Position numbers and translations under genes: made by a program. From positions 210,001-242,000 of the forward strand of contig NC_010814.1 in assembly GCF_000020385.1 (NCBI RefSeq): a DNA stretch of 32,000 nucleotides, written 5' to 3'. This DNA is from Trichlorobacter lovleyi SZ (GTDB lineage Bacteria > Desulfobacterota > Desulfuromonadia > Geobacterales > Pseudopelobacteraceae). Positions 7,172 to 27,376 of the stretch are shown here, one piece after another. Numbering within the stretch: position 1 is the first letter of the stretch; every line of letters starts with the position of its first letter. The notes beneath the pieces were generated by a model. It was not told the DNA's origin. It ran no database searches and worked only from the letters and a program-made list of their open reading frames with translations.

Positions 7172-7179
7172 CCGCATCG

Positions 7180-8959: not shown

Positions 8960-8980
8960 TATTAATAGAGGACACGGCAA

Positions 8981-9256
8981 ATGACCAAAGCAGATATTGT
9001 TGAAAAAATCCATACCAACACAGGTATGACCCAGAAAGAGTCGGCTGAAATGGTGGAGGCAGTCTTTTCCATCATGAAATCGACCCTTGAAACCGGCGAG
9101 ACTTTGAAAATCTCTGGCTTCGGCAGTTTTGTGGTGAAACAGAAAAACGACCGGCGGGGCCGTAATCCTCAGACTGGCGAAGCGATCACCATTGAGGCGC
9201 GGCGTATATTAACCTTTAAGCCAAGCACTGTGCTACGCGATGCAATCAACAAGTAG
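8981..9256 (+). CDS. ihfA: Integration host factor alpha-like / HU family DNA-bending protein
   Basis: 91 aa. The core LKISGFGSFVVKQKNDRRGRNPQTGEAITIEARRILTFKPS is the IHF/HU beta-arm signature. Confidence 0.8.
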   Translation: MTKADIVEKIHTNTGMTQKESAEMVEAVFSIMKSTLETGETLKISGFGSFVVKQKNDRRGRNPQTGEAITIEARRILTFKPSTVLRDAINK

Positions 9257-9286
9257 AGATTGCAGTCTCAGCGAGGATGTGGACTC

Positions 9287-9526
9287 ATGAAGTTCGGAAT
9301 TCGTACACCTTCACTGACGAAACGGATTGCCGCACGGACATCGTTGAAGAGATACGTCCGGCAGTCTTTGGGTCTTAAAGCCCCAAGAGGATGGGGTTGG
9401 CTGACGAATCCCAAGAAGGCTGCCTATAACAAAGTCTACAATCGGACGTCTGTAGGTTGCTTGATTCCGTTGACAGTAATTTACATGATTATTTTCCTTG
9501 CGGTATTCGCTATGGCGAAGATTTGA
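9287..9526 (+). CDS. Small basic protein with C-terminal transmembrane anchor (hypothetical)
   Basis: MKFGIRTPSLTKRIAARTSLKRYVRQSLGLKAPRGWGWLTNPKKAAYNKVYNRT followed by a hydrophobic tail. By recollection the basic N-terminal motif recurs in many uncharacterised bacterial or phage small proteins. ATG 9287 is preferred over TTG 9260. Confidence 0.5.
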   Translation: MKFGIRTPSLTKRIAARTSLKRYVRQSLGLKAPRGWGWLTNPKKAAYNKVYNRTSVGCLIPLTVIYMIIFLAVFAMAKI

Positions 9527-9569
9527 TAAAAGAAGGATTACGTTGAAAAATACAGCCAAAGACATACCA

Positions 9570-10478
9570 ATGAATCCGATTGAAGCAGAGATTGCTGTAA
9601 CAGGCCTTCATGCGACTGGCGATTACATGGTGTTGCGCAGAATGAACCTGAGCCAGGACAGCCGTTTCGCCGGCAAGGTTATAGCCAACCCCAGGATCGG
9701 GCTCTGCCTCGACACGGAAACAACCGGGTTGAACCCTGCTTGCGACAAGATAATTGAGCTTGGGATCGTGGCCTTCCAGTATGACCCGCTGACATCTGGA
9801 ATAATAAAGATCATTGGCCGGTATGCGGGATTTGAAGACCCAGGAATTCCTCTTTCAGCTGAAACAACGGCGATTACCGGCATCACTGATGAGATGGTGT
9901 CTGGCCAGTCCTTCGATGACGCCCAAGTATGCCGACTCGCCGATCAAGCAAGCCTGGTAATTGCCCACAATGCCGCGTTTGACCGCAAGTTCGTCGAGGC
10001 TCGATTTCCGGTTTTCTCAAAAGTGCCCTGGGGCTGTTCCATGACTCAGGTCGACTGGCAGGCAGAAAGGATTTCCACCCGGGTACTGGAATACCTATTG
10101 TTCAAGTTCGGCTGGTTTATCAATGCCCATCGTGCCTTAGACGATGCTGAAGGACTGCTCGGTATTCTTCTGGAATCTCTTCCTGTCAGTGGCACCCCAA
10201 TATTCAAGGTGCTGTTGGAGAGATATGATGAGGTCTCCGCAAAAGTCTGCGCGGTAGGGGCCCCCTTTGAGAAGAAGGACGTACTGAAACAGAGAGGATA
10301 CCGCTGGAATGACGGGGCGCAAGGCGGCTGCAAGGCATGGTGGATAAGTGTTCCCGGGGATATGGAAAGAGAAGAACTTGCCTGGCTTGCCAACGAGGTT
10401 TATCCCCGTGGCATAACGGACAGCGTGGAGATAACGCGAGTCGACGCACTTGATCGCTTCTCAATTCGGGAGAGATAA
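9570..10478 (+). CDS. DEDDh 3-prime-to-5-prime exonuclease (DnaQ/epsilon-like) with a small C-terminal GYRW-type domain
   Basis: Exo I is CLDTETTGL, Exo II is IAHNAAFDRKF, Exo III is HRALDDAEGL. The C-terminus PFEKKDVLKQRGYRWNDGAQGGCKAWWISVP resembles the short domain seen on plasmid primases and topoisomerases (DUF5710-like, from memory). Start taken at ATG 9570. Confidence 0.8.
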   Translation: MNPIEAEIAVTGLHATGDYMVLRRMNLSQDSRFAGKVIANPRIGLCLDTETTGLNPACDKIIELGIVAFQYDPLTSGIIKIIGRYAGFEDPGIPLSAETTAITGITDEMVSGQSFDDAQVCRLADQASLVIAHNAAFDRKFVEARFPVFSKVPWGCSMTQVDWQAERISTRVLEYLLFKFGWFINAHRALDDAEGLLGILLESLPVSGTPIFKVLLERYDEVSAKVCAVGAPFEKKDVLKQRGYRWNDGAQGGCKAWWISVPGDMEREELAWLANEVYPRGITDSVEITRVDALDRFSIRER

Positions 10479-10498
10479 TATTTTATGTGGAATGTCTC

Positions 10499-11092
10499 AT
10501 GGCGATAACCGAGCAAATATTGACTGGTTCTGCCGTTGACGACTGTCTCAACGATATAGCATCACTTCGAATCGATATTTTTAGAGAATTCCCCTACCTG
10601 TACGATGGCCGCCGCAAGGACGAACTCCACTATCTGAAGCTTTACTCCGTAACCCCTGATTCATTCGTGATCATCGTCAAAGAGGGGGAAAAGGTAGCAG
10701 GTGCGGCCACCGGGATGCCGCTGCGACATGAGTCAACGGAACTGGTCGATCCGTTCAGCGGCACATCCTATCCTGTCGACGAGATCTTCTATGTGGGTGA
10801 ACTGCTCTTTTACCCCGAACATCGCAATCACGGTATGGGAATGCAGGTAGTGCGAATGGTAGAGGAGCAGGTTCGTTCCTACAGTACCTACCGGTACCTG
10901 ACCTGTGCCACTGTGGTTCGGCCTGACAATCACCCGCTGCGTCCGGCAGACTATATCCCCATTGACAGGTTTCTCGCACACACCGGTTTCAACCTCCTGA
11001 CCGGAATAACGACGAGCTTCACCTGGCTGGAAACGGATGGTGTCAGGCGCTCCCACCCCATGAAATTCTGGATCAAGGAGTTGCTGGTATGA
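10499..11092 (+). CDS. GNAT-family acetyltransferase-like protein
   Basis: Motif A-like segment LLFYPEHRNHGMGMQVVRMVEEQV (R-x-x-G-x-G). The size and predicted beta-alpha pattern fit GNAT. The stop overlaps the next ATG. Confidence 0.55.
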   Translation: MAITEQILTGSAVDDCLNDIASLRIDIFREFPYLYDGRRKDELHYLKLYSVTPDSFVIIVKEGEKVAGAATGMPLRHESTELVDPFSGTSYPVDEIFYVGELLFYPEHRNHGMGMQVVRMVEEQVRSYSTYRYLTCATVVRPDNHPLRPADYIPIDRFLAHTGFNLLTGITTSFTWLETDGVRRSHPMKFWIKELLV

Positions 11093-11259
11093 TCTGGCAA
11101 TTGTGGCGTCAGGACGACAACGGCGTCAGGTACCTGGTCGGGACATACAGCTCGAAGGAAGAGGCACAAGAGAAGATAACGGAACTGACCAAGTGTCACC
11201 ATAAGCAGACCTACTGGGTAAGTGAAGCAATAGACGCAATAACAGGTGCCGAATCATGA
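11089..11259 (+). CDS. Small conserved hypothetical protein (56 aa)
   Basis: Manually found; it falls below the ORF-track cutoff. Sequence: [60 protein letters not shown] overlaps occur at both ends (11089-11092 and 11256-11259). It resembles a widespread small-protein family of the WxxYRQDDNGNxF...GHKQxYW type (recollection). Confidence 0.5.
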   Translation: MIWQLWRQDDNGVRYLVGTYSSKEEAQEKITELTKCHHKQTYWVSEAIDAITGAES

Positions 11260-12023
11260 GTAAGCCGACGATAACCACAGAAAGCGGCAGGTACTTCCTG
11301 ACAGACCGGATCAGGGAAGAGGTTAATTTCTATTGCACCCCGCAGTCTGAAGGGGTCGATCCGCCTCCAGTTCAGAAACCTGCGCAACCGGGCAGCCGAA
11401 TCATCCCTCTACCGTCCCGGCATGAATGGTCGATTAAGGCGTATGACCTGCAGACAGCAATCGCCGATCGTGAGAGCCACCGCCGCTTTACGGGCGATCA
11501 CCTTTCCCTCGATGAATTGGCCTTTCTCCTCTGGTCAACCCAGGGTGTTCGTGCCGTGATCCACGAAGCTGCAGTTCTACGCACAGTCCCTTCCGCCGGT
11601 TGCCGTCACCCCTTTGAGACCTACCTTGGTGTGCTCAAGGTCGACGGTCTTGACCCGGGTCTCTATCGCTACCTCCCTCTTGATCACGCTCTGGTGCATG
11701 AACGGGATCTCCCGAACCTGCCAGCCTATCTCACCGCCGCCTGCCGCGGTCAGGCATTTGCCGGGCAAGCAGCCGTAACCTTCATCTGGACTGCGGTAAT
11801 GGCTCGCACCGAGTGGCGTTACGCCGAGGCATCCTACAAAGTCATCGCCCTCGATGCCGGCCATGTTTGCCAGAACCTGTACCTGGCCTGCGAAGCGATC
11901 GGTTGCGGCACCTGTGCCATCGCTGCCTATAATCAGGGTCTGGCGGATGAATTGGTTGCCGTAGACGGTTATGAGGAATTCACCGTCTATATCGCCCCGG
12001 CAGGCAAAGTGACCAGAAAATGA
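11256..12023 (+). CDS. SagB/ThcOx-type dehydrogenase (nitroreductase superfamily), stand-alone
   Basis: [29 protein letters not shown]...[39 protein letters not shown] is the SagB-type dehydrogenase signature. No YcaO or cyclodehydratase gene is present in the window. Confidence 0.8.
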
Positions 12024-14206
12024 ACGGGAAAGGCACCACTTCAGATGTCCCGGTCGAACGGATTTCCGGTTCCGTCGAGAGGGTAACCTTCCACAGCGAG
12101 GAATCAGGTTTCTGTGTGCTCCGGATCAAGGTAAAAGGTAAGCGCGAGTTGGTCACGGTCATCGGCAGTGCGGCAACGATAACCCCAGGTGAATTCGTCG
12201 AGTGTGTTGGTACCTGGCATAACGACAAGACCCACGGCCTGCAGTTCAAGACTACTCACCTGAAAACAGTCCCCCCGAGTACCCTGGAAGGCATCGAAAA
12301 GTACCTTGGCTCCGGCATGGTCAAAGGGATCGGCCCCCATTTCGCCAAAGTACTGGTGAAGGCATTCGGCGTCGACGTCTTCACCGTTATCGAGGAAACC
12401 CCGGAGAAAATGCTGTCACTCCCCGGCATTGGCAAGAAAAGGACGGATAAAGTTACCGCTGCCTGGGCAGAGCAGAAAGCGATCCGGGAGATCATGGTTT
12501 TCCTCCAGTCCCATGGTGTCGGGACCGGTCGGGCGGTCAGGATCTACAAAACTTATGGCGATGAGGCCATCATCAAGGTGTCTGAGAACCCCTACCGCTT
12601 GGCTCTCGACATTCACGGAATCGGTTTCAAGACCGCTGACGTCATTGCCGACAGGCTGGGTATTGCCCCGGACTCACTGATCCGGGCTCAGGCCGGCGTG
12701 CGCCATGTATTGCAGGAGTTGTCCGGCGACGGCCATTGTGCCGCCACCCACGACACCCTCATCAAGGAGTCGGTAAAGCTTCTGGAGATTGACGAGGCAA
12801 TCCTGGAAGAAGCGATCCGGGAGGAAGTCACCCAGGAAAACCTGGTGCCGGAAGAAATCGACGACGTTCCCTGTCTGTTTCTGTCCGCGCTTCACCGGGC
12901 TGAACTGGGAGTGGCGAACAGCGTCAGGAGAATACTGAGTGGAGAGCCGCCATGGGGCAAAATCGATATGGAAAAGGCGCTCCCCTGGGTGGAAGAGAAG
13001 ACGGGCCTTTCACTCTCCCAGTCGCAGCAGGACGCTGTATGCCTTGCTTTAACCAGCAAAGCACTCGTCATCACCGGCGGCCCGGGCACCGGCAAGACGA
13101 CCCTGGTCAATAGCATCCTGAAGATCCTCGCAGCCAAACAGCTCGAAATCCTGTTGGCCGCCCCGACCGGACGCGCGGCCAAGCGGATGACCGAGACTAC
13201 AGGACGGGAGGCCAAGACCATTCATCGCCTCCTGGAGTTTGATCCCCAGAGTTTCGGTTTCAAACGCGGGCGAGACAACCCTCTCGAAGCAGACCTCATA
13301 GTCATTGACGAATCATCTATGGTGGATGTGGTGCTGATGAACAAGCTCCTCGCGGCAGTCCCCGAAAGCACCGCTCTGATGATTGTTGGCGATGTAAATC
13401 AGCTGCCTTCAGTCGGTCCCGGTGCGGTGCTGGCCGACATCATCACATCCGGTTCTGTCCCGACCGTCAGGCTGACCGAGATTTTCCGCCAGGCAGCCAC
13501 CTCAAAGATCATCGTCAATGCCCACCGGATCAACAAGGGAGAGTTGCCGCTGAGAAATGAAACGGAAGAGCTATCCGACTTCTACTTCATACCGGCAGAA
13601 ACTCCGGAAGAAATTCACGCCAAGCTACTGCAGGTGGTTACCGAACGCATTCCGAAGCGCTTCGGCCTGCATCCGGTCAAGGATGTCCAGGTTCTCACCC
13701 CGATGAACCGGGGAGGACTGGGCGCTCACGCCTTGAACGCGGAACTCCAGAAAGTGCTCAATGGGAACAGCGAGCCCAAAATAACCCGCTTTGGAACGAC
13801 GTACTCGCCGGGTGACAAGATCATCCAGACGGTGAATAACTACGACAAGGAAGTCTTCAACGGGGATATTGGCCAGATTCTTGAAATCGATACCGAGGAA
13901 AGCTCCCTCAAAGCTGATTACGACGGTAGAATAGTCGAGTATGAATTTGGTGAACTGGACGAGGTGTCGCTGGCCTATGCCACCAGCATCCATAAGAGCC
14001 AGGGTTCAGAGTACCCAGCTGTCGTGATTCCACTGGCAATGCAGCATTACATGCTGCTGGAGAGGAATCTGATCTATACGGCCGTCACGCGGGGGAAAAA
14101 ACTGGTGACGATCATCGGCCAGCCCAAGGCATTGGGTATGGCGGTGAAGAATAAAAATGCCACAAAGCGTTTGACGAATTTGACAGCGAGGCTGCGTTCC
14201 GCATGA
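12020..14206 (+). CDS. recD2: RecD2-type SF1B ATP-dependent DNA helicase (RecD/TraA family)
   Basis: 728 aa. The N-terminal OB-like region reads [22 protein letters not shown]. HhH repeats are present. Walker A is GGPGTGKTT and Walker B is LIVIDESSM. Motif V/VI region: [17 protein letters not shown]...YTAVTRGKK. Confidence 0.9.
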
Positions 14207-14463
14207 CCGACCTGATCCTTGATCATCCAACTCTCACGGCACGTTACTTCTACCCCTGGCCGAATCGGTTTGACGATCCTTTCTACGTGCAGGGGGATGG
14301 TTTCCGTCTGGGGTGTCACTATCGGCACATCTCAGATGACCTGCCGACGATTATCCATTTCCACGGAAACGGAGAGACCGTAGCAGACTACCTTGGCGAC
14401 TTCGAAGATCGGATTACTGGGGCCTGTCAACGAGATTGTGTAAATGACTTATCGGTTTTCTGA
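14203..14463 (+). pseudogene. 5-prime fragment of an alpha/beta hydrolase gene, truncated at about 14416-14420
   Basis: LPTIIHFHGNGETVADYLGDFEDRI is the usual N-terminal strand and oxyanion region of a BAAT or DLH-like hydrolase. After about aa 71 the sequence becomes unrelated (TGACQRDCVNDLSVF*). No nucleophile elbow GxSxG is present. Confidence 0.6.
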
Positions 14464-14560
14464 AGTTCAGTATTATTCCAACGCAAGTTGGACATTCTCT
14501 GTTCTCACGCTATATAATCGGTGTGGTTGGGCAGTCGCTATTTATATGCTTTTATGTCGT

Positions 14561-16081
14561 CTATGCAGTTTCCTTAATTGTTAAGAAATTCGCCACAGAT
14601 GGCTCTTGGGATTGTGTTATTAGCCATTCTAGACGCGTCAGCGCGTGCAAGAAACGCTGATCATGGCTGACTAGCAATAACGCACATGGACAATCGGCCA
14701 GCGCACTTTCCAGACATTCAACCGAAGGCAAATCTAAGTGATTTGTCGGCTCGTCCATGACAATGATGTGCGGCTGCCTCGTCATGCCAAGCGCAAGTAA
14801 TAGTTTCCGAATTTCACCGGGACTGGGTTCACGGCTATCCAGTAAACGATGCGGACGCGATCCTAACCGGCTGATAATAGTCATCACTTGCCCTAATTGC
14901 TCATGCGGCAAAGTTTGCACTTCCGCAAGAATGGCGCGCGATTGCGCCGCGTCAATTTCCTGCGGCAGATAGATCAATTGACCTGCGGGCACGTTGAGTT
15001 GCGGCAGCAGCCAGCGCAACATCGTGCTTTTCCCCGCGCCATTCTGCCCCGTCAGGGCGATGCGATCCGTCGGGCGGATACCTAATTGCGGAAAGGCTAA
15101 CAGTTTTTCAGTATTTAAGGGCAACGTGCCGGATACATGTTGGAACAGCACGTTCCGCTTCGACACCGACCCCGGAAGCCAGATACCGAGCGAATACTCT
15201 TTTTTGACTTTGATCCCCTCCAATTCCTTCTGTGCATGTTCAAACCGACCATCCAACTGTCTCAGAAGTTTCCCTCCGACAATGTCTTTGCCGGTCAAGC
15301 GGGCTGCATCAATTTTCTGCTTGGCATCATGATCGTGTTTTGCAATGCCTTTTTTCGAGCGTTTGTGTTCGTATTGATTGGCTAAATCCCGGCGAAGACC
15401 AGCTTCGCGGCGCAATTCTTTATAGGCCTGTTTCTTCTGGGTATATTCCTTTTTGATGGTCTGAGCATCTATGGCCGCGATTTGCGTGCCTTTTGAATAA
15501 TTGCCGGGCCGTGCTATTACTTCTGGCGGCTCAATAAACAAGCATTGCTGGCATAAGATATCCAGCAATTCACGATCATGGCTGACTAGCAAGCCTACGC
15601 CGGGAAACGACTGTAATGCGCGCAGCAGAATGTTGCGCGCCACAGCATCTACATGATTCGTGGGCTCATCAATTGCGAGCACTTCCGGTTCCAACCATAA
15701 TGCGACTGCGATTTGCGAGCGTTTGCGTTCACCGTGGGATAACGTTGGCCATCGTACCAGCCAATCTTCCTGGATGCCCAACCGACCGCGAATGACTGCC
15801 GCAGTTTTGGCTGTATCCTGTAACAGTTCGGCCAGTTGTGGTGGCGGATCATCGGTGCGTTGGTCACAATAAACTAACCGTGGCGGTGCATCCACATAGC
15901 CGTCATCAGGCAGCAGCAGGCCGGTTGCTAATTTCAGCAGCGTGGTTTTACCAGTACCGTTCGCACCGACAATGCCCGACCAACCCACCGCGAAATGCAG
16001 CGATACATCACGGAACAGCGGTTCATGAGCTGTTTCATAGGTATAACTGATGTGATGGAATTGTAGAAATGGTTGCGACAT
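14561..16081 (-). CDS. ABC-F family ATPase (two ABC domains joined by a charged linker; no TM domain)
   Basis: Start taken at ATG 16081 (GAAGGAAG Shine-Dalgarno upstream): MSQPFLQFHHISY... Domain 1 has GANGTGKTT, LSHGERKR and LAIDEPTNHVD. The linker reads KKEYTQKKQAYKELRREAGLRRDL...DAKQKIDAARLTGKD. Domain 2 has GQNGAGKST, PSPGEIRK and IVMDEPTNHLD. A/T-ending codons (CAA, TTG, AAT, TAT) are visibly more frequent than in neighbouring genes. Confidence 0.85.
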   Translation of the reverse strand: MSQPFLQFHHISYTYETAHEPLFRDVSLHFAVGWSGIVGANGTGKTTLLKLATGLLLPDDGYVDAPPRLVYCDQRTDDPPPQLAELLQDTAKTAAVIRGRLGIQEDWLVRWPTLSHGERKRSQIAVALWLEPEVLAIDEPTNHVDAVARNILLRALQSFPGVGLLVSHDRELLDILCQQCLFIEPPEVIARPGNYSKGTQIAAIDAQTIKKEYTQKKQAYKELRREAGLRRDLANQYEHKRSKKGIAKHDHDAKQKIDAARLTGKDIVGGKLLRQLDGRFEHAQKELEGIKVKKEYSLGIWLPGSVSKRNVLFQHVSGTLPLNTEKLLAFPQLGIRPTDRIALTGQNGAGKSTMLRWLLPQLNVPAGQLIYLPQEIDAAQSRAILAEVQTLPHEQLGQVMTIISRLGSRPHRLLDSREPSPGEIRKLLLALGMTRQPHIIVMDEPTNHLDLPSVECLESALADCPCALLLVSHDQRFLHALTRLEWLITQSQEPSVANFLTIKETA

Positions 16082-16477
16082 GCTTCCTTCTTCAGTCCCG
16101 TTACTCCTTAGTCCCAGGGTGGGTTCAGCTTGCCGCCTCAGCGGCAATAGCTTTTCGCCTTTTCTGAATTTAAGGTTTTATGGGGAAAGTCTGTAACACC
16201 ATGTGATTCCTGACTTCGCAGATTTTTCTGATAATTCTGCTTTTACACTCGTATTTGCCCAACCAGCTTACTTCTCCTGCACAAACCCGGCACAGCAGAT
16301 TCGATTCTCATTCCTCCGCTTGCACCGCCAGCGACCTTCAACTTCAGCGACTCCACTTGCTCCTCCGCGATGCTCCTCGGTTTTCTGTCTTTTCTGTTTT
16401 TCTTCTGTTCAACGGCGAGGGAGATCACCGGTCGGCATTTGGCCCGGTGCATCTATCCTGGTTAGGCCTTTCTTGAA

Positions 16478-17179
16478 CTATCTTCGAGCTTTACCGCTAA
16501 TCCGGGCGATTTCGATTTTGAAGACCTTGGTAATCTTGTCTTTTTGCTCAATGTAGCGTTTGCCCTCTTCGATAAAGTCTGAACAGTATTTCTCCAACAG
16601 CCACAACAAAGCGTGATGTCTCTCGGCGCCATTCACTTCTGAAACTCGGCCAAAGACCACGGCACTTTCGTATTCGGTGCCAAACTTGTCTGGCAGAACC
16701 TTGGTCTTGCCAACCACGCAAAAAGAAACCTTTGCGTTGTGCTCGATATTTTCGAGTTTATGGCCGCTGATGGCACAGTGGAAATAGATTGATCCCTTGT
16801 GAACGTAACTCAACGGCACGCCATAGGGTTGCCCGTCGTTGCCTACCGTCGATAAAATCCCATATTCTGCGGTGTCGAGGATGTCAATTGATTCTTGTGG
16901 GGTTATCTCTCGGTCACTTCTCCGAACTTCCATCATTTGTTCTTCCTTTAGGGGAATAGACTGTCCTCCGTGTGAAGTAAGTACTATCCCGCGGGATGCC
17001 CCTGTTTTCTTGAGCCATCCTTTTTTTTCGAGAGCTTCGAGATGTCGATTCACCCCGGAAGGACTGCTGACACCAAGGTGAGCCGCGATGTCACGCACTG
17101 TCGGTGAGTATCCATGCGTCTGCGTAAAACGGGTAATGAAGTCCAAAACCATTTGTTGCCGTTCAGTAATGGCGATCAC
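16478..17179 (-). CDS. Fusion regulator: LexA-type winged-helix DNA-binding domain + pyridoxamine-5-phosphate-oxidase-like (Nim/Pyridox_ox_2-type) flavin-binding domain
   Basis: The N-terminus (V)[64 protein letters not shown] parallels the E. coli LexA DBD ([54 protein letters not shown]). The C-terminus [75 protein letters not shown] is a typical stand-alone PNPOx-family protein. No S24 peptidase domain or Ala-Gly cleavage site is present. GTG 17179 with GAGGAG 6 nt upstream is preferred. The track start TTG 17242 lies inside the -35 box. Confidence 0.7.
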
Positions 17180-17192
17180 TGTGTTCTCCTCG

Positions 17193-17216
17193 TATAGTGT
17201 ACACCTGTTCACTATA
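17193..17216. promoter_or_regulatory. Candidate operator (inverted repeat) in the divergent regulator / transfer-operon spacer
   Basis: TATAGTG-N10-CACTATA spans 17193-17216. It contains the perfect palindrome GTGTACAC (17197-17204). It also contains GTAC-N4-GTTC (17199-17210), one mismatch from the GAAC-N4-GTTC Cheo-type LexA box. The repeat overlaps the -10 box and the predicted transcription start. Confidence 0.4.
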
Positions 17217-17242
17217 TACTCTCGTTCATATCTTCTTGTCAA
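17213..17242 (-). promoter_or_regulatory. Candidate sigma70 promoter of the LexA-DBD fusion gene
   Basis: The minus strand reads TTGACA (17242-17237), an 18-nt spacer, then TATATA (17218-13), followed by the operator-like palindrome and GAGGAG-N6-GTG. Confidence 0.45.
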
Positions 17243-17289
17243 GACGGTGCCACCTTCCCCCCTACAAGATTATCAGTCAGGAGGAACGA

Positions 17290-17796
17290 ATGTGTCGATT
17301 ACCAGGCATCTGCCTGCTCATGATCAGCCTTGTCAGTTTGCCGATTCAGGCCAAAGCTTTCTGCTTCGAGGAGGCCGGGAGTCAATACGGCATATCGCCA
17401 CAGCTGCTCTGGAGCATTGCCAAGACGGAGAGCAACTTCAACCCCCGTGCGATCAATCGGAACAGTAACGGAACCTACGATTACGGTCTGATGCAGATCA
17501 ATTCAAGTTGGGCCAAGAGACTTGGCAAAACATGGAATGAACTGGGAGAGCCATGCACGAATGTAAAGGTGGGAGCCTGGGTGCTGGCCCAATGTATCCA
17601 GGATTATGGCTACACTTGGCGGGCTGTCGGTTGTTACAACTCGCGCACCCCGTCGAAGGGGGACCGATACGCCGGGAAAGTGTATCGCATCCTCGCTGAG
17701 CATACAAAGCCACAGGCGACGACGCTTATCGCAGCTATCAGCACACCTAGAATCGATTCACCATGGGATGAGGTGTTCGGCAATGCTGTCCGCTGA
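17290..17796 (+). CDS. Lytic transglycosylase (SLT domain), conjugation/T4SS-associated type
   Basis: Start at ATG 17290 (CAGGAGGA Shine-Dalgarno). Signal peptide [21 protein letters not shown]. The catalytic block is [28 protein letters not shown]. Confidence 0.85.
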
Positions 17797-18493
17797 TCTT
17801 CTCCACAAATACGGATTGCCGGAGGACGAGATTGTCGATGCTGTTGAATGCGCTGTGGCAAAGACACTGACGGCAGCTTTTCAGAGAACGGTTACTGTCC
17901 GGGCAGAGGGTGAACTGGAAATAATTGCCTATCCCAAGTTGGGACACCCGGTCGAAATGCAGTTGAAGGACATTCCCAAGAAGCTCCGCCGGCATATCAT
18001 TCACAGTGTCGAAGCGGAACTGCAAAAACGCCAGATCCTGCTGGAAGCAAAAAAACTGCAGGAACTTCAGGGGAGGGTTTTTTGTGGGGCTGTGGGGCGT
18101 ATCGGTTCCCGAGGGACATTGCACGTAACTCTGGAAATTGATGACTTACTTAAGCCTCTCATCCTGTTCGGAGAATGCCCATTACGTTATCAGCCGCCAC
18201 ATGAACGTTCCCGTTATCGCATAGGTGAGCAGCGCAGCTTCCTGGTGACGAGTGTGCGCCCCGTCATGGTGGGAGGCGACATTGCAAAGGTTCGACTCAT
18301 CCTGAACCGGACATCTCGTGTTTTGCCGGCTCTGCTGCTTCAGGACCTGACCGGTATTGCTGGGATCAAATGCCGACGGCGTATCGCAGGAGGGTTCAGT
18401 GAAGTTGTTACGCCGGTTCGGATACCAAAAAAATCGATTAATACAGTCGGAAAGGAGTTGAGGGAACATGTTCAAGTCCTCATCGCACCGTAG
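17783..18493 (+). CDS. NusA-like paralog (NTD + S1-like + one KH-like domain), truncated architecture
   Basis: By-eye alignment to E. coli Nus[25 protein letters not shown] parallels the NusA N-terminus. [12 protein letters not shown]...[62 protein letters not shown] parallels the S1 region through [51 protein letters not shown] parallels KH1. The start is ATG 17783 or 17768 and overlaps the SLT gene end. Confidence 0.5.
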
Positions 18494-19841
18494 CACCACC
18501 AACCCGGAATTCATGACCTCCATCGGTAACGGAGTCCAGATGGAACGACCGACCCGGATCGTTCCGATTTCGATCCCTGATGAATACCGAAAACGGCACA
18601 TGTTCGTATTTGGCACTACCGGGGTCGGCAAAACGCGACTCTGCGAGAACCTAATTGAGCAGGACATCATGAAAGGCAACAGCGTGGTCTACTTCGACCC
18701 CAAAGGTGACCAGCAGATCTTCACCAAGATTTTCGAGGTTGCCCGTAGGGCGGAGAGACTCAAGGATTTGATGCTGGTAACGCCGATTTTCCCGGAATAC
18801 TCAGCGGTCATCGATCCTATGGCCTATTACTTCATGCCGGACGAACTCGTCGGCCATATCGTCTCAGGCATCCAGGGCGGACGTGAACCATTCTACCGCA
18901 ACATTGCAAAGGAAATCACTACTGCCATCATCTCAGCCAACATCATCATCGCCGATTGGGAAAAACGTCTTCCCAAGCAAAATATGGATACTATCAGACA
19001 AAGCATTCGCCGCTCATCATTGAGCAGCACAATGGGGCTACTGCAAGAAATCAAGACACCCGAGGCGCTGCTAAACGCCGGCATGATCCAGGACATCCTT
19101 GAATCTCCCCAGGAGTATTATTCGAAGGTGTCTTCAACATTACGTACCTGCTTGATGGAGCTTTCCTCCGGGAACATCGGCAAGATTATCGGTCAGGCCG
19201 ACAGCAACCGCTTCATCAGCCGACTTGAACGAAAGAAAGGGGTCATCATGGTCGTGCACACCGGCACCATGATTACCAGGGAGGCAGCCACAACACTTGG
19301 CAAAGTCCTCTTGTCGATGATCCAGTCTTTCATCGGCAGGGTCTATCTCTCTGACAAACAGAAAGTATTCCCACCACTGTCCATCTACATAGATGAGGCC
19401 CAGAGCCTGTTCTACCAAGGTATTGAGGACCTTTTCGCCAAGGCTGGATCAGCAGACGTAATGGTGCACGCCTTCGCCCAGTCCGTGAACCAAATATATG
19501 CCGCCATTGGTGAGGAATACGGCAAATCGATCCTCGACAACACCAACACCAAGATCTTCATGCGCTGTTCTGATGCTGAAACATCCGAGTACGTCGTACG
19601 GCATTTCGGCGTGCGCAACGTGCTGACCGGCATTTTCGGGTCCAACCAGGTCACTACCCGTGAAGTGGAACAGGACATTTTGAAAGTGCAGGATATTCTG
19701 GGGCTGCAACCAAGGGAATTCTACATGCTGACCTACTCCGGTAGGTACAAGGGTGTGACTCGTGATGCCAGAGACCCGCAGTTGAAGATAGTCTTCCCGT
19801 CGGCGCCATCTTCCATAACCATGAGCAGAGGGGCCGCATGA
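18468..19841 (+). CDS. TraD/VirD4-type coupling-protein-like ATPase lacking transmembrane segments
   Basis: Walker A is FVFGTTGVGKT and Walker B is LSIYIDEAQ. The T4CP-like C-terminal block reads KIFMRCSDAETSEYVVRHFG. No hydrophobic N-terminal helices are present. Confidence 0.6.
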   Translation: MFKSSSHRSTTNPEFMTSIGNGVQMERPTRIVPISIPDEYRKRHMFVFGTTGVGKTRLCENLIEQDIMKGNSVVYFDPKGDQQIFTKIFEVARRAERLKDLMLVTPIFPEYSAVIDPMAYYFMPDELVGHIVSGIQGGREPFYRNIAKEITTAIISANIIIADWEKRLPKQNMDTIRQSIRRSSLSSTMGLLQEIKTPEALLNAGMIQDILESPQEYYSKVSSTLRTCLMELSSGNIGKIIGQADSNRFISRLERKKGVIMVVHTGTMITREAATTLGKVLLSMIQSFIGRVYLSDKQKVFPPLSIYIDEAQSLFYQGIEDLFAKAGSADVMVHAFAQSVNQIYAAIGEEYGKSILDNTNTKIFMRCSDAETSEYVVRHFGVRNVLTGIFGSNQVTTREVEQDILKVQDILGLQPREFYMLTYSGRYKGVTRDARDPQLKIVFPSAPSSITMSRGAA

Positions 19842-21304
19842 TAATCCTGCTCTACTTCTGTGGCGTTATCGGTTTCCTGATGGTCACTTACAACCTGTGG
19901 CGAATTTTAACCAGGCGTCCGGCTGAAGTAGAGCAAGAACCGTGGGTTCCACTGTCAATTTCGGAACTGGAACCGGATGATGACCTGCCATGCACTGATC
20001 TCGCCACGGTATCTTCAGTATGGACAGGCCGTGTTGTTCACTTCACTGATCTGTCTCGGCTCTGGCGTGAACCCACTCCTAAACAGGAAGAGGAAGCCGC
20101 ATTTCCAAGACCGACATTCCGGCATTCGGAGATTGAAGAGTTCTACAGGGACATTGTGGAACCGGAACCGCTTATCAATGGGAAGCGTAAGACTGTGATC
20201 GTCTATCTGCTTAAGATCCTCGACGCGGAAGGTACATGCCCCTCGGTTGTCGGAATCAAGAAATATGCAGCTGTCGGCAAGCAGATATCTGATCCGGATT
20301 CGGCGTACGGAGCAGCAGCTCTTGCCCAACTGGCTACCATACCGCTCTATCGGCATTCCCTGGGGGTTGCCCGCAAGTTCGTAGAAAAGAACTCTGAAAG
20401 AATCATGCTGCCTACGATCCTCATCGTGTCACTGGCGCATGACATCGGGAAAATTCCCTCTTTCCACAGCCAGTATTATTCGACTGCAGATCATCCGCAA
20501 ATAGCGCTCATCATACTTGCGAGCATTCCGGAATACGTTGCGTTGTCGAACAGGGATGAACTCGACAGCATCATCCGCAACCATCACCAGATAACGCCGA
20601 ACAATCCTCTCACGGCCTGTTTGAAACGGTGTGACCAGGAGTCTCGTAATGATGAGATGGGGTCTTTTCTTGGGCAAATGGCGCAGGTGAGGGCTTCCGA
20701 AGAAAGTTCGCTGCCAATAGCTGAGTCACTGCCACAACCTGATGTACCTGTCACTAAAGAAAAAATTTCGCAGGAATGGGATCACCCGCTCGGATCTCCA
20801 GAATCGGGAAAGTACGTTCCCCAGAAGATAAAGCTTCCTGCATGGTTCAATGCCGATACGATCCTTGGTGGCATCCACGGATTGATCAACCAGGTGGAGA
20901 AAACTTCGTCCGGAGTCAAGTGGCTGGCTGTTTCACTGCCGAACGGGTTGGTCTATGTGAAGCCAGAAGCACTTTGGCAGGTGATCCATCAAGTTAGCGA
21001 TGGCGATCCCATGATCTTGGTGGCTGATGCTGATGAAGAAACCAAACGTAATCTTCTCCATACTGTCGTCTGGGAACTGAGTGCCTCCAGAGATGCCATT
21101 GCCACGGAACTCATGACCAATGCTTACTACACAACGAATGCATCCATCGTGACGAATAACGATAAGTCATTCAACAAACTCCTGATCCCGTTCCGGGTCG
21201 ATGCCTTTGGTGTGCTCACCTCTGAACTGGAAAGCACCAAACCTCCGGTCTTGAGAAAAATAGTCAAGGACATCAGGCCGAAGCATGCGGAGGACAAAGA
21301 ATGA
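19838..21304 (+). CDS. Membrane-anchored HD-domain protein; possible MobH-type (TraI-like) relaxase
   Basis: N-terminal TM helix IILLYFCGVIGFLMVTYNLW. HD motifs are YRHSLGVARKF, LAHDIGKIP, ADHPQIA, RNHH and CDQESR. The C-terminal region (WLAVSLPNGLVYVKPEALWQV) is reminiscent of the C-terminal domain of HD-type conjugative relaxases. The position after a T4CP-like gene fits that reading. Confidence 0.45.
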   Translation: MIILLYFCGVIGFLMVTYNLWRILTRRPAEVEQEPWVPLSISELEPDDDLPCTDLATVSSVWTGRVVHFTDLSRLWREPTPKQEEEAAFPRPTFRHSEIEEFYRDIVEPEPLINGKRKTVIVYLLKILDAEGTCPSVVGIKKYAAVGKQISDPDSAYGAAALAQLATIPLYRHSLGVARKFVEKNSERIMLPTILIVSLAHDIGKIPSFHSQYYSTADHPQIALIILASIPEYVALSNRDELDSIIRNHHQITPNNPLTACLKRCDQESRNDEMGSFLGQMAQVRASEESSLPIAESLPQPDVPVTKEKISQEWDHPLGSPESGKYVPQKIKLPAWFNADTILGGIHGLINQVEKTSSGVKWLAVSLPNGLVYVKPEALWQVIHQVSDGDPMILVADADEETKRNLLHTVVWELSASRDAIATELMTNAYYTTNASIVTNNDKSFNKLLIPFRVDAFGVLTSELESTKPPVLRKIVKDIRPKHAEDKE

Positions 21305-22137
21305 GGAGACTGATACTGGCCTCTATTCTCCAACTCTCCGTGACCACCGCTTCTGCCGGCTATTATGCCGACTCGGCCAAGGGCTGGTGGTGGTACCAGA
21401 AAGAACCTGAGAAGCAGGCCGAAAAGCAGGAAAAGAAGAAGAAACCGCCCAAGAGCACGCCATCGCTCAAGGATTATTCTTATGAGCAGGTTTGGGAGAT
21501 GCATCCCGACCAGTTCCAGGAGTTTGCCGAAGTATTGAAAAAGAAGGCTGTCCAGAAGCCGAGTGAAGAGAATGTGAAGGAGTACTTCGAGGTCCAGGAG
21601 ATTGCCCGCAAGAAGGCGCTGGCTTTTTCCAACGTGGCTCAGTTTGTCTGGCAGAAGTACCCGGAGCTGACCACCAAGAAGGACTATCCGATCACGACTC
21701 CCGGCAACCTGGCGAGGATCTCCCAGATCAATGAGGAGCGGCAGCGCATTCTGCGGGACAACCGGGATGACTTTGCCCTGATTTATTTCCAGAGACCTGA
21801 CTGCAGCTACTGCGATGAGCAATCCCGCATCCTTGACTGGTTCACCAACGAGACCGGCTGGACCGTGAAGAAGGTCAACATCAGTGAGAACCCGGGACTC
21901 GCCGCCAAATTCAGCGTGGAGATCACGCCGACCCTGATCCTGATCCAGAAAGGGAACCAGGATTATCTACCGGTCTCGGCAGGCGTCATTTCCGCCGACG
22001 AGATCGAAGACAAGGCATACCGGGCCGTGCGCCTCCTCAAGGGTGACATCTCCCCGGAGGAATATTCGCTCTACGAATTCCAGAAGGGAGGCAGTTTCGA
22101 CGTGAAGAAACGCCGTCTTCAGGAGGAGCGGCCATGA
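21301..22137 (+). CDS. traF: F-type conjugal transfer protein TraF-like, thioredoxin fold with intact CxxC
   Basis: A signal peptide is present. The motifs GWWWYQKEP and ALIYFQRPDCSYCDEQSRIL...ITPTLILIQ parallel F-plasmid TraF and the TrbB-like disulfide isomerases. Confidence 0.8.
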   Translation: MRRLILASILQLSVTTASAGYYADSAKGWWWYQKEPEKQAEKQEKKKKPPKSTPSLKDYSYEQVWEMHPDQFQEFAEVLKKKAVQKPSEENVKEYFEVQEIARKKALAFSNVAQFVWQKYPELTTKKDYPITTPGNLARISQINEERQRILRDNRDDFALIYFQRPDCSYCDEQSRILDWFTNETGWTVKKVNISENPGLAAKFSVEITPTLILIQKGNQDYLPVSAGVISADEIEDKAYRAVRLLKGDISPEEYSLYEFQKGGSFDVKKRRLQEERP

Positions 22138-23660
22138 GTCTGCCGGTACCACTGCAACAGAAAAGAGGTGTCAGTGTGAAACGAACTGTTATTACCAGAA
22201 CCGCCGCTGCCTGCCTGGCGGCAACAATTGCCTTGAACCCTGTTCTTTCCTGGTCCGGCTGGGTCGATGACTGGGTGCAGCAAAAAAGCTCCACTTCTCC
22301 CAGCTATTATGAAGGATCAAAGCGTGGCTACTACACTGGCGGCAGTTTCTCTGCCAGATGGGCGAACACCGATGACCATCTGTTTACTGCCTCGCTGCCC
22401 AAACTGAAGTCCGGCTGCGGTGGGATCGACATGTTTCTCGGCGGCTTCTCGTTTCTGAATGTGGATTACCTGGTGCAGAAGCTCCAGAACATCCTGTCGG
22501 CAGCTCCGGCCGCAGCCTTTGATATTGCCCTGAAAACCCTGGCACCCCAGGTTGCCGATACCATCAAGAGTCTTGAAGCAATCACCGACCGGTTGAACTC
22601 GCTACAGATGAATGACTGCAAGGCGGCCAAGGCTCTAGTGGCTACTGCTGCCAGTCCGTTTTCATCAGTCATGTCCGACAGCCTGAAGGCAGAGATGAAA
22701 ACAGCCCAGACCGACTTCATGGTATCAAGCGGCGCCAAGGATCTTTATCAGGATGTCAGCAAGCTGTTCGAGAGCGAACAGAAGACCAATGCTGGTAACA
22801 AGCCTGGCGTTCCCGGAACGACCCAGACCTCAGCCACCAGTGCTACCGCCGGTTGCCCGACCGAAGTCCTGCAGGTATTCGGGGACGGGTCGGTCCTGGA
22901 AAACCTGGCCGGCAAGAAAGGAATGAGCAGCGAGTACGTCAAACTGGTGCGCGGCTTCATCGGCGATGTGATCATCCAGAACCCGGCGACGACCGGTACC
23001 ACCTACCAGGCCCAATACATTCCTCCGTGCGACAAGAACAACAGCTTCGATTCCTTTATCAGCGGTTCCGCCCAGGGACGGGATACCGCCGGGGCCTGTG
23101 CCGATATTACCGATGCCAACAAGAACCTGATGGTCTATGTGGCCGGCAAGATGCAGTCCATCGCTACCAAGATCAAATCGAAGACCGCCCTTACCGCCGA
23201 CGAGGAGGCGTTCCTCAAGAGTACGCCGCTGTCGGTCGGGCTGATCCTCAAGAATGCCACTGCCACCAATACCGAGGGTGAGGTCATCGGCAAACTGGCA
23301 GAACTGACCGCCCGGGCCTACGGCTACTACATGCTGCTCGACCTGTTTGGGCGTGCAGTCCAGTTGCAGGAGATGGCCCGCAACATCATGTCTACCCAGA
23401 AGGGTAATAAAGCCGGGGCTTCGCCGGAGACCTGCCAGTTGGCGCTCCTCGGCGAAGGTATGCAGCATATCCAGACGCTTGAGGAAAAGACGCTGCAACT
23501 TCTGAGCGTTGCCCAGCAGAGTTACGCCAATGCAGCTTCTGAGATCAATGCGGTGGAAATGATCGTCCAGAATATGAAGAAATTCGACGACACAGTGTTT
23601 TCGGAATTATCAGACCGGTTCGGCAAAGGAATCGCCATGAGGGCTACCGGCAGAATCTAA
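22134..23660 (+). CDS. traH: F-type conjugal transfer protein TraH-like
   Basis: SPSYYEGSKRGYYTGGSFSARW...LPKLKSGCGGIDMFLGGFSFLN...AFDIALKTLAPQV parallels F TraH (YYSGGS..., SAGCGGIDAFAGSFSHIN). A signal or TM segment lies at the N-terminus. Confidence 0.8.
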   Translation: MSLPVPLQQKRGVSVKRTVITRTAAACLAATIALNPVLSWSGWVDDWVQQKSSTSPSYYEGSKRGYYTGGSFSARWANTDDHLFTASLPKLKSGCGGIDMFLGGFSFLNVDYLVQKLQNILSAAPAAAFDIALKTLAPQVADTIKSLEAITDRLNSLQMNDCKAAKALVATAASPFSSVMSDSLKAEMKTAQTDFMVSSGAKDLYQDVSKLFESEQKTNAGNKPGVPGTTQTSATSATAGCPTEVLQVFGDGSVLENLAGKKGMSSEYVKLVRGFIGDVIIQNPATTGTTYQAQYIPPCDKNNSFDSFISGSAQGRDTAGACADITDANKNLMVYVAGKMQSIATKIKSKTALTADEEAFLKSTPLSVGLILKNATATNTEGEVIGKLAELTARAYGYYMLLDLFGRAVQLQEMARNIMSTQKGNKAGASPETCQLALLGEGMQHIQTLEEKTLQLLSVAQQSYANAASEINAVEMIVQNMKKFDDTVFSELSDRFGKGIAMRATGRI

Positions 23661-23681
23661 CAACAATGAAAGGGAGGAATT

Positions 23682-24083
23682 ATGGCAGACAAGACTAACA
23701 AGGCGGATAAGGGTAACAGCACCCCTCCTGCTTCCAAGAAAGTCGACTGGCAGGCTAGAAAGCTGGAGAATGCGAAACGGGACGATACAAGTGTTGTTTT
23801 CTGTCGCGCTCGTGATACCGGCGACTTCATCAACATTCTCAACTCAAACGATAATCTCGTCTACCAGATGCGGATGAACATGGGGAGGAGGGAGTCCCTG
23901 ACATTTGAGGTAGTGAAGAGCTACATCGACCGGAGCCGGCGAATTAAGGAAGAACTAAATCTCATGAATGCCGAAATGTGCCAGTTGCTCGACTACACGT
24001 ACAAGCCGCCACGGGGATTCGATAACCCTCTCAAAAAGCAGGATAAGCAGGCAGTCCCTGGGGTAGAAACCGGCAAGAAATGA
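23682..24083 (+). CDS. Hypothetical 133-aa basic protein
   Basis: ORF with a GGGAGGA Shine-Dalgarno. No family was recognised. It is the last cistron before the non-coding region. Confidence 0.55.
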   Translation: MADKTNKADKGNSTPPASKKVDWQARKLENAKRDDTSVVFCRARDTGDFINILNSNDNLVYQMRMNMGRRESLTFEVVKSYIDRSRRIKEELNLMNAEMCQLLDYTYKPPRGFDNPLKKQDKQAVPGVETGKK

Positions 24084-24141
24084 TTACTCTGTTTCAGTCG
24101 AACCGGGACGATGCCAAATGGGTCGTCCCGGGTGAATCCTC

Positions 24142-24470
24142 TTGACTTGTAAGAGGAATATCGATAGCGTTTCAGTATTATAGACTCTTTCAAGAGACTC
24201 CGTGCGGCCTTTGAGCCCCGGATAGACTTTTTCGGATAGCCCGAAGAAGAAATGCCCCCGGCAGGGATGAACTACCTGGAAAGACAAGGCCGCAGTTGCC
24301 CCTTTCCGGATGACACCAGGAACGGCTTATGCCTTCCTCGATCAGTCGTATGGGTAATGCGACTTGAATCCAATCTGAAGGTGCGCCCATCAATGTAGCG
24401 CGTGCCTCTGATAACCAATAATCACGAAGAACAGTGACCTATTCTGGCAATGGCCGGAGTGGGTTTTTTG
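24142..24470 (+). ncRNA. Candidate structured non-coding transcript (alternatively oriT or a single-strand promoter region)
   Basis: TTGACT (24142-47), a 17-nt spacer, then TAGCGT (24165-70). At least five local hairpins follow. Examples: CTTTTTCGG/CCGAAGAAG at 24227-24249; GGAAAG/CTTTCC at about 24277-24307; AGGAA(C)GGC/GCCTTCCT at about 24318-24339. A terminal hairpin TCTGGC-aatg-GCCGGA (24443-58) is followed by TTTTTT (24464-69). No convincing ORF lies on either strand. Confidence 0.3.
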
Positions 24471-24528
24471 TTGTTCAAAATCCGCGACAAGCTTTGTAAG
24501 CGGCGGATACTTTCACCACATCCCGACC

Positions 24529-24601
24529 GGGAGACATTTTGTTCTCTCCCTACGGGACAGACATCTGTCTCTTTGCTTCGGGAAAACCACAAGGAGGCAG
24601 T
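24529..24601 (+). promoter_or_regulatory. Two-hairpin leader module A (upstream of ssb)
   Basis: GGGAGA-N10-TCTCCC at 24529-24550. Palindrome GACAGA-ca-TCTGTC at 24556-24569. Proximal stem CTCTTTG/CAAGGAG (24569-75 with 24590-96) pairs the Shine-Dalgarno. Confidence 0.45.
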
Positions 24602-25021: not shown

Positions 25022-25051
25022 CAACCAGTAACCACAACTCAACAGTCCTAC

Positions 25052-26087: not shown

Positions 26088-26132
26088 CACCTGACGTTAC
26101 AGACTGAACCTCACTCACAACCAACCTCAGCA

Positions 26133-26376: not shown

Positions 26377-26388
26377 AAGGAGACAGCC

Positions 26389-27363: not shown

Positions 27364-27376
27364 TCCAACCCCACAA

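Follow-up and report, generated by a model that had tools for sequence, protein, structure and literature searches.

A LexA DNA-binding domain joined in frame to a PNPOx-type flavoprotein on a Trichlorobacter lovleyi conjugative island: a very recent chimera and a possible SOS-blind autorepressor

What becomes of an SOS repressor when its autopeptidase domain is exchanged for a flavoprotein? The question is raised by a minus-strand gene in a 32,000-nucleotide (nt) stretch of Trichlorobacter (Geobacter) lovleyi SZ (RefSeq GCF_000020385.1, contig NC_010814.1, positions 210,001 to 242,000), hereafter the window, whose own positions are used throughout. The gene joins the winged helix-turn-helix (wHTH) of LexA to a domain of the PNPOx (pyridoxamine-5'-phosphate oxidase) family and lies divergently to a conjugative transfer module. 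An initial annotation, made from the letters alone, had proposed that SOS control of a mobile element was thereby rewired to a flavin or redox input. The combined reading favored here, which we consider probable though by no means secure, is that the gene is an accidental and very recent chimera by origin and an SOS-blind autorepressor by function. Its parts are as follows.

16478 to 17179, minus strand: chimeric open reading frame (ORF), 233 residues, with a GTG start and the ribosome-binding site (RBS) AGGAG at 17190-17186.
Residues 1-67, 68-86 and ~90-233 of the product: LexA wHTH, disordered linker and PNPOx/Nim-like split barrel, respectively.
16949 to 17179, minus strand: lexA-derived part, codons 1-77, identical at 222 of 230 nt to the full-length lexA of Geomobilimonas luticola (locus L018).
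16478 to 16936, minus strand: complete PNPOx/Nim-like coding sequence, 152 residues, with 90-93% identity to stand-alone 153-residue Desulfuromonadaceae proteins.

The minus-strand frame 16478-17242 is open and begins with TTG 17242. This codon was rejected as the start, since it lies inside the -35 hexamer of the promoter described below; the GTG at 17179 was chosen instead, which stands six nt past AGGAG and yields the 233 residues. In orthologues, stop codons close the frame 10-14 codons ahead of this GTG. Three Pfam families exceed their gathering scores in this product, namely LexA_DNA_bind (PF01726; 4.7e-19, 68.4 bits, cut-off 23.7), Pyridox_ox_2 (PF12900; 4.5e-15, 56.3 bits, cut-off 27) and PNPOx_N (PF01243; 2.2e-13, 51.0 bits, cut-off 28.1). 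By PDB sequence search, residues 2-78 match the LexA N-domains 1lea, 1jhf and 3k2z (1e-9 to 1e-10), and residues 84-230 match the flavin-binding split barrels 2hti and 2fg9. The AlphaFold2 model, a monomer without ligand, has a mean pLDDT (predicted local distance difference test) of 89, with three helices and a wing at residues 1-67 (80-88), disorder in the linker (below 50 at residues 72-78) and a split barrel at residues 90-233 (96-98). The best Foldseek matches of the C-domain are 2fg9, 2hq9, NimA 1w3o and 2hti, with probability 1.00 and target-normalised template-modelling scores of 0.58-0.85, and the domain models as an intact flavin-type split barrel. Pfam, the PDB matches and the model therefore agree with the annotation that a LexA wHTH and a complete PNPOx/Nim-like domain share one ORF, and the refutation that it had set for a C-domain without a flavin or ligand pocket is not triggered by the model. 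The nearest NCBIfam entries score below their cut-offs: the lexA equivalog TIGR00498 reaches 58.5 bits against 110.95 with the N-terminal part, and NimABCDEF 104 bits against 260 with the C-terminal part. By the sequence-based definition of the latter equivalog, the PNPOx domain is not classed as a Nim 5-nitroimidazole resistance protein.

The chimera keeps the complete LexA DNA-binding domain (DBD) and hinge and lacks the Ala-Gly cleavage site, the Ser/Lys dyad and the S24 dimerisation domain. Peptidase_S24 (PF00717) was not found in the product by the Pfam scan, and its whole 233-residue translation contains no Ala-Gly dipeptide, in agreement with the loss of the autopeptidase and its target that had been reported. 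With all three elements gone, RecA-stimulated self-cleavage is impossible.

Is the fusion real? A separate short LexA-like gene and a PNPOx gene could have been merged by a frameshift error or in a chimeric contig; metagenome gene calls of a 151-153-residue PNPOx and a 126-residue LexA-DBD do share the chimera's 90% cluster, and stand-alone 73-residue proteins consisting of the LexA-DBD only occur in phages. However, the product is identical to WP_012468334.1 / ACD93976.1 of the finished SZ genome, the fusion cluster is seen on about 100 contigs, and the same LexA/PNPOx junction recurs in independent metagenome assemblies (L001, L094, L095 and L096; ENA, Logan). No stop codon or frameshift, which the annotation had listed as a possible refutation, separates two genes in the SZ sequence. 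The split gene calls are explained by an IS630-type insertion with TA duplication, treated below, and the phage proteins are merely 54-57% identical and come from an unrelated context. Because the fusion stands in a finished genome and in independent assemblies, an assembly artefact is excluded, and we accord the merger explanation next to no probability. A stand-alone short LexA-DBD gene that lost its stop codon was also considered as the ancestor and rejected, since the 73-residue matches are phage genes elsewhere and the orthologues on related elements are full-length.

These orthologues disclose the first parent. A scan of species-representative genomes for the TraD-like coupling protein gave 79 related loci, mostly from Geobacterales and Desulfuromonadales, eight of which (L015, L016, L018, L020, L025, L027, L028 and L055) carry a homologue of the N-terminal domain at the equivalent position. 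Each is a full-length LexA, of 200 residues in the six close loci and 218-221 residues in L028 and L055, and the orthologous proteins possess the ..VGTVRAG|Q.. cleavage site, a GDSM or GNSM serine and a TLKWF or TLKRF lysine; Peptidase_S24 (PF00717) matches the L015 LexA at 1.8e-32. The wHTH of the chimera is 92-95% identical over 77 residues to that of the intact proteins, and truncation after codon 77 falls nine codons ahead of the ancestral Ala-Gly site. A search of the whole window recovered residues 1-77 as the only LexA remnant. On the same strand and 3' of the intact lexA lie a conserved 81-residue ORF (orf81), for which Pfam gave no match, and a Y-family (IMS/DinB-type) polymerase, and most of the loci also have an SRAP gene, which is either next to the polymerase or a few kb beyond it. 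This arrangement, lexA-orf81-Y-family polymerase(-SRAP/YedK), represents a mobile SOS cassette; it occupies 5863-8711 of L015 and is also present in the other loci named above. The wHTH coding region contains an A8 homopolymer (17021-17028); a metagenome contig, L097 (2614-3215), has A7 there, and its otherwise full-length lexA is split into ORFs of 64 and 135 residues, through either a genuine frameshift or an error in sequencing.

How did the lexA fragment come to precede a PNPOx gene? The features on which the answer rests are these.

14420 to 16949: replacement segment of 2.5 kb with PNPOx and ABC-F, in place of 5.0 kb in L015 and 3.4 kb in L018.
16949 to 16950, minus strand: recombination junction, a 2-bp TA common to the lexA parent (..ATTCCCCTA|CCGATA..) and the PNPOx parent (..GGCATA|AAGGAAG..).
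16937 to 16948, minus strand: former 5' leader of PNPOx, now translated as K-E-E-Q, with the RBS AAGGAAG (16948-16942) six nt upstream of ATGATG.
14203 to 14419, plus strand: alpha/beta-hydrolase gene truncated to its first 72 codons by the left breakpoint, 14420; the intact protein has 249 residues in L015.
14561 to 16147, minus strand: ABC-F ATPase, 528 residues, with a ribosomal protection-like best NCBIfam match of 273 bits, below the cut-off of 380.

Outside the segment, the window follows its relatives closely. Positions 1-3506 of L015 correspond to window 10914-14419 (94%) and 8487-21371 to window 16955-29831 (96.5%), while DNA homology to L018 resumes at 16949 and the protein match to L018 runs through ..SIPL. 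Beyond this motif the L018 LexA reads PIVGTVRAGQ.., whereas the window switches to the PNPOx leader. In a three-way comparison, the right junction reads ..ATTCCCC-TA-AAGGAAGAACAAATGATG.. and the lexA parent goes on TA|CCGATAGTT. The DNA replaced comprises, in the relatives, the 3' part of lexA, orf81, the Y-family polymerase, SRAP and further genes. Since both flanks are syntenic with L015 and L018 (RecD2 and a nitroreductase on the left, transfer genes on the right), the change is internal to the element; for the same reason, the fusion joint was rejected as an att end of an integrative element, and the window contains no tRNA gene.

The second parent is equally recognizable. DNA homology to more than ten stand-alone PNPOx loci (L002, L003, L098 and others; ~90-92% nt identity) begins at 16950 in all closer loci, 14 nt ahead of the ATG, and stops ~70 nt past the stop codon, at ~16402-16410. 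The K-E-E-Q leader sequence also precedes the stand-alone genes in L002 and L003, and because homology switches at this leader, the apparent linker is a translated PNPOx leader including its RBS. The annotation had noticed a double Met (ATGATG, 16936-16931) at the fusion joint with AAGGAAG (16948-16942) before it, and had suspected a recent fusion that preserved the PNPOx start and RBS. Both motifs lie there, and a homology of ~92% that starts exactly 14 nt upstream of the ATG agrees with that suspicion. Compared with the stand-alone 153-residue proteins, the PNPOx part shows K2M and a one-codon deletion (KGESIY to KGSIY).

From these alignments, we conclude with high confidence that the LexA-PNPOx gene originated by segment replacement within a conjugative island. 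In-frame joining is a matter of chance, with a probability of 1 in 3 and a leader that happens to contain no stop codon. The incoming segment itself looks composite. None of the stand-alone PNPOx loci fetched has an ABC-F neighbor, and import of PNPOx and ABC-F as a pre-existing pair, a possibility we considered, was not found, PNPOx homology ending shortly after its stop codon. Two resistance-associated families, ABC-F and Nim-like PNPOx, thus stand side by side in the segment, both below NCBIfam cut-offs. Just past the PNPOx stop lies a hairpin element of ~55 nt (CACCGG..CCGGTG, ~16407-16467), which is kept 3' of stand-alone PNPOx genes and has three copies in L099 (1699-1752, 5480-5544 and 8458-8517); it may be a small repeat or a REP-like (repetitive extragenic palindromic) sequence.

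How widely the architecture is shared bears on whether selection maintains it. Among the 120 matches listed by a word-indexed search of 5.8 billion proteins, the fusion is confined to one 90% cluster; the other matches listed, at no more than 93% identity, are all stand-alone PNPOx proteins of ~153 residues and, where named, belong to Desulfuromonadaceae or Geobacteraceae. A word-based search with the 81-residue N-terminus missed the full-length LexA orthologues, and its match list is not exhaustive. Apart from the chimera's own cluster, no protein spans both domains in the best 150 of the 13,689 matches that HMMER gave in an exhaustive comparison with 1.84 billion representatives, and a wHTH was never seen on the N-terminally extended PNPOx matches, whose extensions were CWC, GNAT or nothing. 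Correspondingly, a PNPOx gene occurs in 0 of the 79 related transfer loci and a LexA gene in 0 of 39 PNPOx loci. The further wHTH(LexA)+PNPOx fusions for which the annotation had recommended a search did not emerge from the protein matches so delimited, and conservation of the architecture across lineages, as a sign of selective maintenance, was not observed.

The fused allele is young. In L094, L095 and L096 it differs from the window at five positions only, all in the first 33 nt, and the 820 bp of 16326-17146 are 100% identical between carriers, though the L094 transfer backbone is only 96% identical. Such identity despite a diverged backbone indicates that the junction arose once, very recently, and then recombined between backbone variants. 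As the carriers differ at 0 positions past codon 11, the ratio of nonsynonymous to synonymous substitution rates (dN/dS) has no power on this allele. A fused metagenome variant, P0129, shares the C-terminal patch ENIGHN..ESVVLFGRASEVIGAERHG with a stand-alone PNPOx variant, P0130, which points to either recombination between fused and stand-alone copies or a chimeric short contig.

In related populations, the gene has meanwhile been interrupted at the following site.

16982 to 16983, minus strand: TA dinucleotide at codons 66/67 (GTA CTT), the insertion site of an IS630-type element in related populations, with TA duplicated.

Six contigs, L005-L010 (SRR17798820/21 and the SRR179331xx run series), carry this element of ~1.1 kb at 16983/16982. 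It encodes a 344-residue DDE_3 transposase, extends over 4604-5703 in L005 and has the ends TTACTCCGGCAATTAAA.. and ..TTTATTTGCCGCGGTAA. Its insertion splits the chimera into a LexA-DBD ORF running into the insertion sequence (IS) and a free PNPOx ORF. The inserted form as the ancestral state, from which the fusion arose by excision, is unlikely, because the window has the uninserted TA and the IS lies 33 nt off the junction. An IS630-mediated origin of the junction was similarly found to be unsupported, the left breakpoint being without a TA.

What, then, does the recombined gene control, and what controls it? The 110-bp divergent spacer, 17180-17289, contains the relevant sites and is bounded by the first transfer gene.

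17213 to 17242, minus strand: lexA promoter, with -35 TTGACA (17242-17237), an 18-nt spacer and -10 TATATA (17218-17213).
17195 to 17214: 20-bp palindromic operator TAGTGTACACCTGTTCACTA, of the pattern TAGTG-nn-CA-nn-TG-nn-CACTA, overlapping the -10 end and the transcription start predicted near 17206.
17290 to 17796, plus strand: divergent SLT lytic transglycosylase, 168 residues, the first gene of the conserved transfer module.

The spacer motifs on which the annotation had built, TTGACA-18-TATATA and the longer palindrome TATAGTG-N10-CACTATA (17216-17193), were confirmed at these coordinates. Our consensus promoter scanner missed the promoter, since its rule demands T at position 6 of the -10; both hexamers are nevertheless invariant in an alignment of six orthologous spacers, taken from loci whose LexA proteins share 79-100% identity with the L015 protein. 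Its fully conserved blocks are ATAGTGT.CA..TG..CACTATATA (operator and -10), CTTGTCAAGA (-35) and the SLT ribosome-binding site. Within the operator, which spans the -10 end to about +12 of the lexA promoter, the bases TAGTG..CA..TG..CACTA are conserved and the intervening ones vary. Only 0.07 matches to the palindrome are expected by chance in the window, which holds no second copy even when up to 2 mismatches are allowed. Each locus with this lexA clade has TAGTG-N10-CACTA exactly once, in every case at the lexA -10/+1, and the remainder of the 1.3 Mb of related DNA, including the flanking 10 kb of related loci, contains no copy. Operator and promoter are unchanged in all fusion carriers, even where the flanking bases differ.

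Taken together, this conservation marks the palindrome, by its sequence, as the predicted lexA auto-operator. The annotation had called it a Cheo-box-like operator; that assignment was rejected because its GTAC-N4-GTTC is not conserved. The E. coli LexA box, CTG-N10-CAG, has a 10-bp spacer. So does the Geobacter sulfurreducens LexA box, GGTT-N10-AACC (PMC8565304), with which the present operator shares its palindromic form and spacing while differing in its arms; identity with this published Geobacter box was likewise rejected, as the conserved positions do not fit the motif.

The course of events can be reconstructed from these elements. The ancestral element carried a self-contained SOS cassette, lexA-orf81-Y-family polymerase(-SRAP), divergent from the SLT/TraD module, with the 20-bp palindrome as its predicted auto-operator over the lexA -10/+1. 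Illegitimate recombination then took out 3.4-5 kb and brought in the 2.5-kb PNPOx and ABC-F segment, with the right breakpoint joining lexA codon 77, via the TA microhomology, to a point 14 nt upstream of the PNPOx ATG. With the lexA promoter and operator intact and the upstream region of PNPOx lost, PNPOx and probably ABC-F depend on the lexA promoter; ABC-F, oriented like the chimera, may be co-transcribed with it.

The functional part of the reading turns on dimerisation. On its own, the LexA N-domain binds its operator weakly, but it represses again once it is fused to a dimerising module; split-barrel flavoproteins, NimA among them, form homodimers. Given the homodimers of the PNPOx fold, the flexible linker and the precedent of LexA fused to dimerisers, the chimera is probably a dimeric autorepressor, the dimerisation of its PNPOx domain being deduced from solved relatives. 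Joined to that domain by a flexible linker of ~19 residues, the wHTH would probably bind the palindrome as a dimer, and the protein would then repress its own transcription homeostatically, at a level that cannot be induced. With the internal RBS and ATG retained, free PNPOx is probably made as well, and this protein could form one-armed heterodimers with the chimera. We therefore hold only tentatively, with slightly less than even confidence, that the chimera acts as an SOS-blind autorepressor, possibly dimerised by its flavoprotein domain.

Alternatively, the recombination may amount to promoter capture, in which the fusion binds its operator poorly or is unstable, the lexA promoter is constitutively open, free PNPOx and ABC-F are what matters, and the LexA stub is a passenger. 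PNPOx retains just 14 nt of its own upstream DNA and so relies on the lexA promoter, its native RBS and start codon are intact within the ORF, and IS630-split alleles that still encode PNPOx persist in several assemblies. The fortuitous joining in frame and the weak binding of an isolated LexA N-domain are also as this explanation would have it. However, the model shows two intact domains on a long flexible linker, split-barrel flavoproteins are known to dimerise and engineered fusions of the LexA-DBD to a dimeriser to repress, and operator and promoter have stayed unchanged in all carriers notwithstanding differences in the flanks. On this evidence, we rate promoter capture, the main rival, as rather unlikely.

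Several observations nonetheless weigh against an autorepressor of the kind preferred here. Purifying selection on the fused state could not yet show in so young an allele, and the IS630-split form means that at least one population can dispense with the intact fusion. A gap of 330 bp with the hairpin-containing repeat separates the chimera from ABC-F. The monomer model is silent on the reach of two wHTH domains to half-sites 10 bp apart. Finally, the spacer offers no convincing candidate for a sigma-70-type SLT promoter, and an effect of the operator on SLT is possible, though nothing speaks for it.

This last point leads to the most far-reaching claim of the initial annotation, in which the PNPOx domain senses a flavin, a redox state or a nitroaromatic, controls binding by the LexA domain in place of RecA induction, and gates the operon from SLT to TraH. 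A wHTH with a ligand-binding dimeric domain is formally a one-component system, the operator does sit in the spacer common to lexA and SLT, and the fused ORF is intact in an isolate genome and several metagenomes. Yet the fusion arose incidentally, in a segment replacement whose other end cut short an unrelated hydrolase gene, its linker is a translated 5' leader, its architecture was found nowhere else in the searches made, the absence of divergence among carriers shows that there was no time for adaptation, and an IS splits the gene in some populations. Moreover, the only operator copy lies over the lexA -10/+1, a place that suits the lexA promoter, and its center is ~85 bp upstream of the SLT ATG.

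The genetic setting argues in the same direction. In the conserved module, SLT is followed by a 236-residue ORF, the TraD-like coupling protein, an HD protein, TraF and TraH. Of 64 related SLT-TraD loci, 56 could be read upstream of SLT; lexA is directly divergent from SLT in only 6 of these and ~1 kb off in 2 more, and the rest have unrelated genes there. This rarity marks lexA as accessory cargo and not as a conserved regulator of transfer. In L017 (T. thiogenes) and L019 (a Pelobacteraceae metagenome-assembled genome), homology to the window covers the transfer module and reaches no further than the lexA-SLT spacer, up to 17226 and 17251, respectively, which makes the lexA cassette exchangeable cargo beside a conserved transfer module. 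The edge of the SLT module is a recurrent cargo-exchange boundary, with unrelated DNA upstream in both of these loci.

An accidental origin, a cargo lexA, an operator confined to lexA and a young, unique allele thus leave the proposed rewiring of SOS control without positive support and with several points against it; we regard flavin gating of conjugation as unsupported and the sensing model behind it as improbable. The more general idea of a newborn one-component regulator, whose flavoprotein domain both dimerises it and lets flavin redox state or a nitroaromatic influence its hold on the operator, is similarly doubtful. If it were true, a mobile-element promoter that once answered DNA damage would answer a redox or xenobiotic signal, and the fusion would have been caught at birth, with both parents, the exact breakpoint and a natural IS-split revertant available for comparison. 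A ligand-responsive chimera would represent a rare and datable rewiring of signal input, and the present evidence does not point there.

Further features of the neighborhood deserve brief mention. The 236-residue ORF between SLT and TraD (~17783-18493) has no family match, and a 488-residue protein of the conserved module, encoded between the TraD-like coupling protein and TraF (19838-21304, plus strand), shows a weak HD-domain match. To the left, nucleic-acid enzymes abound on the plus strand of window 5810-14206, which encodes a non-specific endonuclease, the large subunit of exonuclease VII, an RNase T-like exonuclease, a GNAT protein, a nitroreductase and a RecD2-type helicase. Its synteny with L018 over 7809-12000 and with L015 over 10914-14419 suggests that this stretch is part of the same island. 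In the G. lovleyi genome paper (PMC3403914), the island is presented as a large one in the chromosome that bears F-type tra genes; LexA and the present gene go unmentioned.

The locus is valuable because the birth of a fusion on a mobile element can be reconstructed exactly, and because it holds a caution for annotation; it does not demonstrate a new principle of regulation. A complete DNA-binding domain and a complete, probably dimeric enzyme were accidentally joined, by way of a translated 5' leader, into a two-domain, regulator-like gene. Its two parents, the junction to the exact base, the operator that was kept and an IS-split derivative are all still recognizable. The comparison also identified a mobile lexA-orf81-Y-polymerase(-SRAP) cassette with its own TAGTG-N10-CACTA operator on conjugative elements of Geobacterales. 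The database name of the chimera is already "LexA family protein"; here this does not imply SOS inducibility, and LexA control of the adjoining transfer operon should not be assumed.

The closest relatives of the chimera are the canonical LexA proteins that head SOS cassettes of the lexA-dinB type, as in L015, L018 and the two autoregulated lexA genes of Geobacter sulfurreducens. The N-terminal wHTH is common to all of these, and the intact orthologues in L015, L018 and other loci also share the promoter, the 20-bp auto-operator over the -10/+1 and the position divergent from SLT. The chimera differs in lacking the Ala-Gly site, S24, orf81, the Y-family polymerase and SRAP, and its TAGTG-N10-CACTA operator is distinct from both the published Geobacter box and the Cheo box. 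The SetR/CI-type S24 repressors of SXT/R391 integrative and conjugative elements, where transfer is coupled to SOS, resemble it as LexA/CI-class repressors beside an F/SXT-like transfer module; the best NCBIfam match of the window's coupling protein is SXT_TraD, below the cut-off. Unlike them, the chimera has no S24 domain, and its intact ancestor is tied to a polymerase cassette instead of the transfer genes and is missing from most related elements. Phage replication modules encode 73-residue proteins with LexA_DNA_bind only (P0137-P0141), which are likewise natural S24-less LexA wHTH proteins of mobile elements; at 54-57% identity, these are unfused and lie in an unrelated context. With respect to its C-terminal 152 residues, the chimera is a complete member of the Nim/PNPOx-like flavin mononucleotide split barrels (NimA 1w3o, BT_3078 2fg9, BH0577 2hti), to which the stand-alone 153-residue proteins common in Desulfuromonadales (90-93% identical to this part) also correspond, and it is set apart by its N-terminal DNA-binding extension, which none of the other members retrieved possesses.

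The nearest functional parallel comes from the laboratory. Bacterial dimerisation and two-hybrid reporters use LexA 1-87 joined to leucine zippers or test proteins, and LexA (Ind-) mutants that resist cleavage are known. Like these, the chimera places the DBD and hinge on a heterologous, probably dimeric domain and is predicted to bind its operator beyond the reach of RecA relief. It differs from the engineered fusions in being natural, a product of illegitimate recombination in a mobile element, with dimerisation and repression that are predicted only. Its components and the ancestral cassette are of known kinds, and the chimera is a natural counterpart of the laboratory LexA-DBD fusions.

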